A stretch of 64,000 nucleotides of DNA from a virus (Duplodnaviria; Heunggongvirae; Uroviricota; Caudoviricetes), in the IMG/VR virus record IMGVR_UViG_2706796742_000001, positions 23,511 to 87,510 of that record. One strand, given 5' to 3'. Each line of letters starts with the position of its first letter. Positions within the stretch are counted from its first letter, which is position 1. Position numbers and translations under genes: made by a program. The notes beneath the pieces are model-generated. The model was not told the DNA's origin. It saw only the letters and a list, made by a program, of their open reading frames with translations, and did no database searches. Positions 5,478-7,065 of this stretch are shown here, piece by piece.

Positions 5478-5554
5478 GCACCTATAGCCCAACTGGTAGA
5501 GGCAGCAGACTTAGAATCTGCTCAGTGTGAGTTCGAATCTCTCTAGGTGTACCA
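5478..5554 (+). tRNA. class-I-sized tRNA with anticodon TAG (Leu codon CTA); identity uncertain
   Basis: acceptor GCACCTA/TAGGTGT, anticodon stem GCAGA/TCTGC with loop CTTAGAA, 5-nt variable loop, A73, CCA; acceptor and flank resemble tRNA-Arg at 4821. Confidence 0.55.
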
Positions 5555-5561
5555 AATTAAT

Positions 5562-5637
5562 GCAGGTGTAGCAAAATGGTTATGCGGCTGACTCTTAATC
5601 AGTAAGACGATGGGTTCAATTCCCTCCACCTGTACCA
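5562..5637 (+). tRNA. tRNA-Lys (anticodon CTT)
   Basis: acceptor GCAGGTG/CACCTGT, anticodon stem GCTGA/TCAGT with loop CTCTTAA, T-loop TTCAATT, CCA. Confidence 0.55.
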
Positions 5638-5643
5638 GACATT

Positions 5644-5719
5644 GGGGATGTAGTTTACATGGTTAAAACATAAGTTTTGCAAACTTAAGTACAGGGTTCA
5701 ATTCCCTGCTTCTCCACCA
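5644..5719 (+). tRNA. tRNA-Ala (anticodon TGC)
   Basis: acceptor GGGGATG/CTTCTCC with one mismatch, anticodon stem TAAGT/ACTTA with loop TTTGCAA, T-arm CAGGG-TTCAATT-CCCTG, CCA. Confidence 0.65.
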
Positions 5720-5725
5720 ATTAGT

Positions 5726-5800
5726 GCATCCATAGTTTAAACGGGAAAATTACAGTCTTCCAAACTGAGGTTGAGGGTTCGATTCCCTCTGGATGCTCCA
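5726..5800 (+). tRNA. tRNA-Gly (anticodon TCC)
   Basis: acceptor GCATCCA/TGGATGC, anticodon stem CAGT/ACTG with loop CTTCCAA, T-arm GAGGG-TTCGATT-CCCTC, CCA. Confidence 0.7.
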
Positions 5801-5807
5801 AATTAAT

Positions 5808-5884
5808 GCTGCTTTCGTATAATTGGCTATTACACATCCATTGTAAGGATGGAAATGCAGGTTCGAGTCCTGTGAGCAGCACCA
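5808..5884 (+). tRNA. tRNA-Thr (anticodon TGT)
   Basis: acceptor GCTGCTT/GAGCAGC, anticodon stem CATCC/GGATG with loop ATTGTAA, T-arm GCAGG-TTCGAGT-CCTGT, CCA. Confidence 0.7.
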
Positions 5885-5979
5885 ATTCAGAGGTCAAGTG
5901 AAAGACCGCTGGTGTCAACTGAAGACCGTAACAAATTCCACGGAGTTGAGTTAGCGGCACAACTTCAGACCTCTTTCAC

Positions 5980-6054
5980 ACTCGCTTAGTTTATATGGTA
6001 AAACATCACCCTTACAAGATGAAGAAAAAGGTTCAAGTCCTTTAGTGAGTACCA
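5980..6054 (+). tRNA. tRNA-Val (anticodon TAC)
   Basis: acceptor ACTCGCT/AGTGAGT, D-stem GTTT/AAAC, anticodon loop CTTACAA with one stem mismatch, T-arm AAAGG-TTCAAGT-CCTTT, CCA. Confidence 0.55.
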
Positions 6055-6055
6055 T

Positions 6056-6133
6056 GTTCCAGTATCCCAATTGGCAGAGGATGCAAGCTCAAACCTTGTA
6101 TTAGTGACGGTTCGAATCCGTCTTGGAACACCA
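6056..6133 (+). tRNA. class-I-sized tRNA with anticodon CAA (Leu codon TTG); identity uncertain
   Basis: acceptor GTTCCAG/TTGGAAC, anticodon stem GCAAG/CTTGT with loop CTCAAAC, short variable loop, T-arm GACGG-TTCGAAT-CCGTC, A73, CCA. Confidence 0.55.
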
Positions 6134-6149
6134 ATTTTAGGAGAACACT

Positions 6150-6257
6150 ATGAGTGATAAATCAATTGCAAAAAAGTTTATAGCGTCATTCAAAAATAGG
6201 CGTAAAAACAAAGATTGTGAAAATCTGTATGGTGTTCTTGTAGGTAAGCAGGATTAG
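6150..6257 (+). CDS. hypothetical Lys-rich micro-protein (35 aa)
   Basis: AGGAGA RBS 6 nt upstream of ATG; MSDKSIAKKFIASFKNRRKNKDCENLYGVLVGKQD; last codons overlap the 5' end of tRNA-Arg at 6248; below ORF-track length cutoff. Confidence 0.25.
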   Translation: MSDKSIAKKFIASFKNRRKNKDCENLYGVLVGKQD

Positions 6258-6323
6258 TTCAAATGGATAGAGCAGCAGTCTACGAAGCTGTTAATAGGGG
6301 TTCGAATCCCTTATCCTGCGCCA
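6248..6323 (+). tRNA. tRNA-Arg (anticodon ACG)
   Basis: acceptor GCAGGAT/ATCCTGC, D-stem GTTC/GAGC, anticodon stem GCAGT/GCTGT with loop CTACGAA, T-loop TTCGAAT, CCA. Confidence 0.65.
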
Positions 6324-6342
6324 ATTTAAAGAGGCTATTTAG

Positions 6343-6900
6343 ATGAGATATTTGAAGTATGCTTCATGGATTTTCCTAGCTTTGCTAGAACCATTTGCAG
6401 CAATCCTAGCAGTCATCTTAGCACCTTTTGTAGTTCCATTCTACAGTGAGAAGAAAGGGCACTTACCTTTCGGCTTCAGATGGATGGAGACATATGACAA
6501 CCCAATTGATGGTGATAAAGGTCATGTTGAACGATGGGCTAAGATTAGAAAGGTTGGTAAGCTTGGTGTCTATATGCAGAGAGTCGGTTGGCTCTGGAGA
6601 AACAAAGCTTATAACTTCTCTTACCATGTGTTAGGAAGAGATGTAAAAGATGTTACTAAGTGGAAAGGTAATATCAATGTAAGTTCTGACCCTGAAGATA
6701 ATCAGACAGGTTATCTCCTAATGTGGAACAGCAATGCTTGGGGATTATTTGCTTTTGTACCATCAATTAAAGTCTTTGGTAAACAGTTTTACTGGAGAAT
6801 TTATATTGGATGGAAACTTAAAAGTGTTGTCCCAGAAGAAAGAGCATTCTCAAGGGAAAGAGTTATGTTGGCATTCTTTATTCATCCACTAAGAAAATAA
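6343..6900 (+). CDS. hypothetical membrane protein encoded inside the tRNA array
   Basis: 185-aa ORF with AAGAGG RBS; hydrophobic N-terminus IFLALLEPFAAILAVILAPFVVPF; Trp/Tyr-rich. Confidence 0.5.
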   Translation: MRYLKYASWIFLALLEPFAAILAVILAPFVVPFYSEKKGHLPFGFRWMETYDNPIDGDKGHVERWAKIRKVGKLGVYMQRVGWLWRNKAYNFSYHVLGRDVKDVTKWKGNINVSSDPEDNQTGYLLMWNSNAWGLFAFVPSIKVFGKQFYWRIYIGWKLKSVVPEERAFSRERVMLAFFIHPLRK

Positions 6901-6908
6901 AGATTTAA

Positions 6909-6984
6909 AGGGGATTAGTTTACAAGGTTAAAACCTCGGTCTTTGAAATCGAAGAAGTTGGTTCAATTCCAACATCCCCCGCCA
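6909..6984 (+). tRNA. tRNA-Gln (anticodon TTG)
   Basis: anticodon stem TCGGT/ATCGA with loop CTTTGAA, T-arm GTTGG-TTCAATT-CCAAC, CCA; 1-72 position unpaired. Confidence 0.6.
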
Positions 6985-6986
6985 AT

Positions 6987-7065
6987 GCTCCATTACTCCA
7001 ATTGGCAGAGAGGCCAGACTTAAAATCTGTGTTATGTATCGGTTCGAATCCGATATGGAGTACCA
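6987..7065 (+). tRNA. tRNA with anticodon TAA (Leu codon TTA); variable arm shorter than typical class II
   Basis: acceptor GCTCCAT/ATGGAGT, anticodon stem CAGA/TCTG with loop CTTAAAA, ~7-nt variable region, T-arm ATCGG-TTCGAAT-CCGAT, A73, CCA. Confidence 0.5.

Follow-up and report, generated by a model that had tools for sequence, protein, structure and literature searches.

Short-armed leucine tRNA genes in the tRNA array of a Felix O1-like phage

Can a tRNA that lacks the long variable arm serve as a leucine tRNA in a phage of the Felix O1 group? The question is raised by three genes in a 64-kilobase (kb) stretch of DNA from a Caudoviricetes phage (IMG/VR record IMGVR_UViG_2706796742_000001, positions 23,511 to 87,510), referred to as the window throughout. 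All three carry Leu anticodons (NAG or YAA), namely TAG, CAA and TAA, on bodies with the short variable loop of type I tRNAs. An initial annotation based on hand folding of the sequence had pointed this out and offered two alternatives: leucine identity through A73 and tertiary elements, or charging by a different synthetase. We find that the genes have leucine-type bodies lacking the long arm.

Three leucine tRNAs with short variable loops

We called tRNA genes in the window with ARAGORN, with the Rfam tRNA model RF00005 (gathering score 29) as a second detector. ARAGORN finds 25 tRNA genes between 3370 and 8260, every one on the + strand. The genes relevant here are the following (window coordinates):

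5478-5554, + strand: type I tRNA-Leu(UAG), hereafter Leu-TAG; anticodon 5512-5514, variable loop TCAGT at 5522-5526, A73, encoded CCA, G1.U72, A37
6056-6133, + strand: type I tRNA-Leu(CAA), hereafter Leu-CAA; anticodon 6090-6092, variable loop ATTAGT at 6100-6105, A73, CCA, anticodon loop CTCAAAC (C38)
6987-7065, + strand: type I tRNA-Leu(UAA), hereafter Leu-TAA; anticodon 7021-7023, variable loop GTTATGT at 7031-7037, A73, CCA, G1.U72
3370-8260, + strand: the phage tRNA array, 25 genes for 19 amino acids, Trp absent (ARAGORN, Rfam and variable-arm lengths)
3924-4011, + strand: Tyr tRNA with a long variable arm (ARAGORN, Rfam and arm length)
5136-5225 and 8088-8180, + strand: two Ser tRNAs with long variable arms (ARAGORN, Rfam and arm length)

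The ARAGORN calls are identical to the hand-folded coordinates and anticodons, and brought up neither other anticodons nor long arms. Including CCA, the genes measure 77 nucleotides (nt) for Leu-TAG, 78 nt for Leu-CAA and 79 nt for Leu-TAA, and they score 57.3, 44.0 and 47.5 bits, respectively, with RF00005. Without CCA, the cloverleaf parse gives 74, 75 and 76 nt, which agrees with the 74-75 nt and the variable loops of 5-6 nt that had been proposed for the first two. Each tRNA has a 7-base-pair (bp) acceptor stem, U8, a 3-bp D stem, an 11-nt D loop, a 5-bp anticodon stem and a 5-bp T stem, and all three carry an encoded CCA after the discriminator A73, which the hand folding had also reported.

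The variable loops are 5 nt (Leu-TAG), 6 nt (Leu-CAA) and 7 nt (Leu-TAA) long, and none of them exceeds 10 nt as a long (class II) arm does. Class II arms are kept elsewhere in the same array, with 15 nt in the Tyr tRNA and 20 and 21 nt in the two Ser tRNAs. Among the 25 ARAGORN tRNAs of the window we find no long-arm tRNA-Leu, as the initial annotation had stated; the short-armed three are the sole Leu genes. When they are aligned with E. coli leuW, leuX and leuZ, the main difference is a gap of 8-10 nt exactly at the variable arm.

The window belongs to the genus Felixounavirus: the 2.1 kb round the genes are 94-98% identical to more than 250 genomes of Felix O1-like phages, a group of myoviruses with E. 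coli, Salmonella, Shigella and Citrobacter as hosts. The gene order of the window array is collinear with that of the annotated Felix O1 array. The genes as such are already annotated in public records: the same three slots are labelled tRNA-Leu in the Felix O1 RefSeq record, and the genes, conserved in more than 250 Felixounavirus genomes, are annotated there as tRNA-Leu, which was the outcome of the comparison with related phages proposed at the outset. Leu-TAG is identical in about 50 Felixounavirus records. Leu-CAA has matches of at least 95% identity in 247 phage records and of at least 99% in 158, and Leu-TAA has matches of at least 99% in 214. Given the 94-98% identity of the surroundings, Leu-CAA and Leu-TAA are both more conserved than the DNA in which they lie.

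Could these be decaying tRNA genes, or a folding artefact? One GenBank record labels an alternative allele of Leu-TAG, described below, as 'tRNA-OTHER, pseudo', and single-sequence minimum free energy (MFE) folding gives weak z-scores of -0.2 to -1.8, which are not significant, as is usual for tRNAs; the MFE structure of Leu-TAA is not a cloverleaf. We judged MFE folding uninformative and used covariation in its place. Across 20 type I Leu tRNAs from 10 phages, 98% of the cells are paired and 19 of the 20 pairs are compensatory, and not one of 500 shuffles does as well. The subset from phages of Proteobacteria behaves similarly (96.7% paired, 17/19 pairs compensatory), and compensatory changes are found in all four helices. 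With this strong covariation, the independent agreement of ARAGORN and Rfam, and the conservation of Leu-CAA and Leu-TAA above that of their surroundings, we regard decay or misfolding as very improbable.

The bodies are also of the leucine type. The D arm has the format of bacterial tRNA-Leu, a 3-bp stem with an 11-nt loop, C-AAYUGGYAG-A, next to G/A-AAUYGGUAG-A in E. coli (alignment with leuW, leuX and leuZ). To score the resemblance, we built a covariance model, R1, whose training set was limited to type I Leu tRNAs from unrelated phages and from Actinobacteria, with no Felix-like sequence among them. Leu-TAG scores 89.4 bits with this model, Leu-CAA 71.5 and Leu-TAA 68.4, compared to 57.0 bits for the best non-Leu tRNA of the window and 59.8 bits for E. 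coli leuW despite its inserted-arm penalty. By these scores and by the D-arm motif calls given below, the three genes are members of a shared type I Leu sequence family.

Two details of the bodies may be added. The G1.U72 wobble at the end of the acceptor stem (window positions 5478/5550 and 6987/7061) is shared by 14 of the 19 type I Leu tRNAs from phages, compared to 23 of 162 other phage tRNAs. The T loop GTTCGAATC, with A59, is present in 8/8 aligned type I Leu tRNAs from phages of Proteobacteria, while position 59 is G in the Leu tRNAs of E. coli and of actinobacterial chromosomes.

Charging and codon meaning

The published determinants of E. coli leucyl-tRNA synthetase (LeuRS) are A73, the A15-U48 Levitt pair, G18G19, A20a and tertiary contacts linking the D loop to the T loop (Giege & Eriani 2023, PMC9976931). 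The enzyme needs neither anticodon nor long arm, and arm-less minimal substrates stay active (PMC9976931). Sequence and alignments place U8-A14, A15-U48, G18G19 at the Leu-specific position, A20a and A73 in 3/3 of the phage Leu tRNAs. Since the published E. coli LeuRS determinants are all present, the first of the two alternatives, identity through A73 and tertiary elements, is favoured.

Under the second alternative, another synthetase would charge the tRNAs and UUA, UUG and CUA would be recoded in the phage proteins. The missing class II arm is the sole point that speaks for it. We assessed codon meaning by aligning phage NrdA and NrdB to their E. coli and T5 homologues. TTA falls on Leu at 13/26 sites, TTG at 5/19 and CTA at 8/16, that is at 26-50% of sites or 4-7 times the 7.3% background of non-Leu codons. 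CTT (18/45) and CTG (6/26) fall on Leu about as often. UUA, UUG and CUA thus retain their standard Leu meaning in the phage. The tRNAs themselves also argue against a different synthetase: they lack the G3.U70 of tRNA-Ala, their Leu anticodons exclude the anticodon-reading synthetases, and the seryl- and tyrosyl-tRNA synthetases require long arms (rules per PMC9976931). Added to this are the Leu-specific D arm and the scores with model R1. Charging by another enzyme with recoding is accordingly hardly credible.

Leucine codons in the phage (39% GC) are distributed as TTA 27%, CTT 27%, CTG 17%, TTG 14%, CTA 11% and CTC 4%. E. coli is dominated by CUG, which makes up roughly 50% of its Leu codons, with CUA at about 4%. 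The phage mix is unlike that of E. coli, so the three anticodons cover the codons most needed relative to host supply.

We therefore consider it probable that the three are working Leu tRNAs of type I lineage, which the host LeuRS charges by way of A73 and the tertiary core and which supplement the decoding of UUA, UUG and CUA. Both the charging and the translational benefit are what we infer from the above. The array would be transcribed and then processed, the CCA being already encoded. The host LeuRS, which reads no anticodon, would recognise A73 together with the tertiary core (U8-A14, A15-U48 as the Levitt pair, A20a and the placement of G18G19) and would put leucine on the three tRNAs. 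Once charged, they would decode UUA, UUG and CUA, and possibly other CUN codons. As the phage, at 39% GC, uses UUA, UUG and CUA far more often than E. coli does, the host isoacceptors would be supplemented late in infection. Analogy with Streptomyces coelicolor lends support, as it provides a case of a bacterial LeuRS charging a type I tRNA-Leu (PMC6614811).

Several points weigh against this explanation, of which one is substantive. With E. coli LeuRS, the type I tRNA-Leu(CAA) of S. coelicolor remained uncharged in vitro, and the same study states that the E. coli enzyme 'only charges type II' and that its leucine-specific domain favours large variable loops (PMC6614811). This result conflicts with the activity of arm-less E. 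coli constructs. Position 48 is C in the Streptomyces tRNA and U in the phage tRNAs, which also keep the D-loop geometry of E. coli, so the negative may not transfer to them. The remaining points concern the tRNAs themselves. There are mismatches in stems, U50.U64 in the T stem of Leu-TAG and C27.U43 in Leu-TAA, both small. In the anticodon loop of Leu-TAG (CTTAGAA, 5510-5516) position 37 is A, where E. coli leuW has G37, an m1G37 site, and in that of Leu-CAA (6088-6094) C38 breaks the A36A37A38 MiaA/TrmL motif of leuX. A37 and C38 could affect decoding. The pseudogene label of the alternative Leu-TAG allele counts on the same side.

A37 and C38 also resemble anticodon-loop differences that have been proposed as a means of evading anticodon nucleases.

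If the E. coli LeuRS negative did apply, the tRNAs might not be LeuRS substrates in Enterobacteria at all, and might instead be uncharged decoys or sponges for tRNA-targeting enzymes, have another RNA role, or be charged via a phage factor. A Ro-like RNA-binding gene (phrog_850, DUF2828), found directly upstream of the tRNA array both in the window and in three further, unrelated phages, would fit such a role. Nevertheless, A73, the encoded CCA and a canonical anticodon stem-loop are conserved together with all the E. coli Leu determinants, and the four helices carry compensatory changes. The three anticodons exactly match Leu codons that are enriched in the phage, and none of the window's open reading frames (ORFs) of at least 250 amino acids is synthetase-like. 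We consider a role without charging by LeuRS improbable. Decoy, recoding and pseudogene are thus all unlikely readings of these genes.

The upstream gene (1789-3204, + strand) encodes a DUF2828 and DUF7788 protein of 471 amino acids, with 'RNA-binding protein' as the phrog_850 annotation. A DUF2828 or 'Ro-like RNA-binding protein' gene also precedes the array in Klebsiella phage FBKp34, Streptomyces phage Jay2Jay and Gordonia phage Forza, a recurrence suggesting that Ro-like protein and tRNA array may form a conserved module. A PDB sequence search with the window's DUF2828 protein gave no match.

Other features of the array are as follows. Two ORFs lie inside it, DUF7338 (6343-6900) and DUF7217 (7289-8086). 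The Felix O1 array is interrupted by HNH endonuclease genes, and those genes are absent from the window array. Ser(TGA) at 5136-5225 is followed by CC-T in place of an encoded CCA, unlike most members of the array. An inverted repeat of 26 nt (5387-5412 and 5451-5476, 92% complementary, 38-nt spacer) ends 2 nt 5′ of Leu-TAG and is conserved in Felix O1; it could be a processing or terminator hairpin.

A type I lineage in phages and chromosomes

Next, we looked at how widespread short-armed tRNA-Leu genes are. In a blastn search, Leu-TAG aligns over its full length, leaving no space for an arm, with genes annotated as tRNA-Leu; these belong to phages that infect Mycobacterium, Streptomyces, Gordonia, Enterococcus, Bacillus, Klebsiella, Cronobacter and Pseudomonas. 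The type I form is found in phages whose hosts are Proteobacteria, Firmicutes and Actinobacteria. In the eight such phage arrays that we retrieved, the Leu loops are 5-6 nt long and the Ser and Tyr arms are still long. Among the carriers are phages of Proteobacteria, Klebsiella FBKp34, Cronobacter CR3 and Pseudomonas PE09, whose hosts have an E. coli-like LeuRS. Enterococcus phage Bop carries both forms in one array, a long-arm Leu(taa) beside a short-arm Leu(tag) (4825-4910 and 4994-5067 of the locus). T4, T5, jumbo phages and cyanophages have long-arm Leu tRNAs, and our counts of long-arm and short-arm Leu among phages come from biased queries and do not give true frequencies.

The D-arm motif GCCCAAYTGGYAGAGGC extends this picture. 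It occurs in at least 120 IMG/VR contigs; at 80 IMG/VR motif loci, which range from 31 to 69% GC, 67 tRNAs were called (14 loci had no tRNA call), all of them Leu with loops of 5-6 nt, A73 and U48. At 120 motif loci in GTDB genomes, 101 tRNAs were called (21 loci without a call), all type I Leu. Most of the GTDB genes are tRNA-Leu(UAA) standing alone, and come from Nocardia, Mycobacterium, Rhodococcus, Gordonia, Corynebacterium, Arthrobacter and Amycolatopsis, and the remainder lie in multi-tRNA arrays. Because flanking genes are conserved between genera, the type I Leu genes of Actinomycetota are ordinary chromosomal genes.

Chromosomal multi-tRNA arrays (Microcoleus, a Polyangiaceae metagenome-assembled genome, Asanoa and others) contain mostly type I Leu, plus long-arm Ser and Tyr.

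The window Leu-TAG shares 78-84% identity with the type I Leu genes of other phages and 76% with actinobacterial genes (76-84% for type I Leu overall), compared to 70% for E. coli leuW; the phage Leu genes together show 55-72% identity to leuW, leuX and leuZ. On these comparisons, the window genes are part of a type I tRNA-Leu lineage common to many lytic phages, mobile tRNA arrays and Actinomycetota chromosomes.

Two other origins were considered. We rejected an independent deletion of the arm from an E. coli tRNA-Leu, the phage genes being closer to other type I Leu genes than to leuW, leuX and leuZ. A phage-specific innovation was rejected likewise, as syntenic chromosomal genes in Actinomycetota belong to the same family.

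The Leu-TAG slot has its own history. Felix O1 and many of its relatives carry another type I Leu(TAG) allele in the slot corresponding to 5478-5554 (2679-2756 in the Felix O1 locus), which is 61% identical to that of the window and has the loop TGTTT and an odd D arm. The window's allele is found in about 91 of roughly 254 Felix-like records. The flanks are identical up to the first and the last tRNA nucleotide, so it is exactly the gene body that was exchanged, as a cassette. The Streptomyces phage Jay2Jay has two copies, one like each allele. No match to Leu-TAG was found by blastn in 5,426 complete E. coli genomes, which argues that the gene is not host- or prophage-derived in E. coli.

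This turnover and the restriction of arm loss to Leu invite an explanation by defence. The tRNAs would be charged with leucine, and their short arm would have been selected to hide the Leu decoders from effectors that sense the long class II arm; candidates are nucleotidyltransferase toxins of the MenT/AbiEii type and hypothetical nucleases. Among the class II isotypes, Leu alone has a synthetase that tolerates arm loss, so Ser and Tyr would stay long, and Leu is the one isotype shortened in all the phage arrays examined. Arm sensing has precedents: MenT3 requires the long variable loop of tRNA-Ser (PMC11162799), and class II tRNAs seem to be the favoured targets of the abortive-infection toxin AbiEii (bioRxiv 10.64898/2026.01.19.700257). 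The Leu-TAG body has been exchanged precisely, one type I allele for another, unrelated one, inside near-identical flanks, and this looks like diversifying turnover; moreover, the anticodon loops differ from the host's (A37, C38).

Against this, T4, T5 and jumbo phages thrive with long-arm Leu tRNAs, and since type I Leu is ordinary and chromosomal in Actinobacteria, the shape needs no defence rationale. We know of no effector in Enterobacteria that targets tRNA-Leu via the arm. MenT3 itself hardly acts on Leu tRNAs (PMC7450476). We therefore hold selection of the short arm for evasion to be unlikely, while giving it more weight than a role without charging. The same low degree of belief applies to a reading that joins defence and charging: arm loss would be adaptive rather than neutral, would have spread horizontally among phages in a pan-phage type I lineage that has its D arm in common with actinobacterial genes, and would keep Leu decoding going when class II tRNAs are inactivated via the arm by host defences or by a shut-off that the phage induces; enterobacterial LeuRS would, against the published 'type II only' statement, charge these tRNAs thanks to A15-U48 and the E. 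coli D-loop geometry, and the Leu-TAG allele swap would be the footprint of an arms race.

Relation to known leucine tRNAs

The initial annotation took bacterial tRNA-Leu to be normally class II. This holds for E. coli and fails as a universal rule, given S. coelicolor (PMC6614811), by implication M. tuberculosis (PMC7450476), the Actinomycetota chromosomes and the phages described above. In the literature, a review has tRNA-Leu long-armed everywhere but in animal mitochondria (PMC9976931). Type I tRNA-Leu is, however, already known from Streptomyces, where the study that described it termed the bacterial form rare (PMC6614811), and only 'several' M. tuberculosis Leu tRNAs are said to be long-armed (Cai et al., PMC7450476), which implies type I among the others. 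We found no mention of short-arm tRNA-Leu in phages in the open-access full-text literature, which is not proof of absence, and none in reviews on non-canonical tRNAs (PMC7609411), viral tRNA modification (PMC13191261) and tRNA arrays (PMC4758250).

That Felix O1, representing a well-known group of coliphages and Salmonella phages, carries only type I Leu contradicts the textbook generalisation, and type I Leu is frequent both in the tRNA arrays of phages from different host phyla and on Actinomycetota chromosomes. The phage genes provide natural substrates for probing the recognition rules of E. coli LeuRS and may serve as compact Leu-accepting scaffolds. Annotation pipelines are also affected, as some records call such genes 'tRNA-OTHER/pseudo'. 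Should arm loss prove defensive, it would be a new route by which phage tRNAs evade tRNA-targeting immunity.

The nearest described system is S. coelicolor, which has one type I tRNA-Leu(CAA), with the loop ACAGC, and four type II tRNA-Leu, all served by a single LeuRS that charges both types (Fan 2019, NAR 47:6369, PMC6614811). There, U8-A14 is important for type I charging, as is a loop no shorter than 5 nt (PMC6614811), and the phage loops of 5-7 nt are within this range. Like the phage tRNAs, the Streptomyces tRNA combines a short loop (5 nt) with U8-A14, A73 and a canonical D/T elbow. It differs in being chromosomal and standing beside four type II genes, whereas the phage array has type I Leu only, and in having C48, whereas the phage tRNAs have U48 and with it the A15-U48 pair of E. 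coli. Its LeuRS has a specialised leucine-specific domain; the phage hosts have a LeuRS of the E. coli type.

The chromosomal type I Leu tRNAs of Actinomycetota share with the phage tRNAs an identical D arm, GCCCAAYTGGYAGAGGC, a 5-nt loop ending in U48, and A73. They differ in being solitary genes in syntenic high-GC contexts, mostly with a UAA anticodon, and in having G59 where the phage tRNAs have A59.

E. coli leuW, leuX and leuZ have the same anticodons as the phage genes, the same D-arm architecture and D-loop sequence, A73 and A15-U48, and leuZ also has G1.U72. Unlike the phage tRNAs they have variable arms of 13-15 nt and G59, with G37 in leuW and A38 in leuX. The tRNA-Leu genes of T4 and T5 are, like those of the window, encoded by coliphages within tRNA clusters; unlike them they are type II, with 87 and 85 nt.

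Finally, arm-less tRNA-Leu is known from two further settings. Animal mitochondrial tRNA-Leu is of type I, like the phage tRNAs, with A73 and A14 as determinants (PMC9976931), but has degenerate D and T loops and a dedicated mitochondrial LeuRS, whereas the phage elbow is fully canonical. Minimalist arm-less versions of E. coli tRNA-Leu leave E. coli LeuRS active if A73 and the D/T contacts are intact (Larkin et al. 2002; Asahara et al. 1998; per PMC9976931). Those are laboratory constructs derived from E. coli tRNA-Leu, whereas the phage tRNAs are natural genes.

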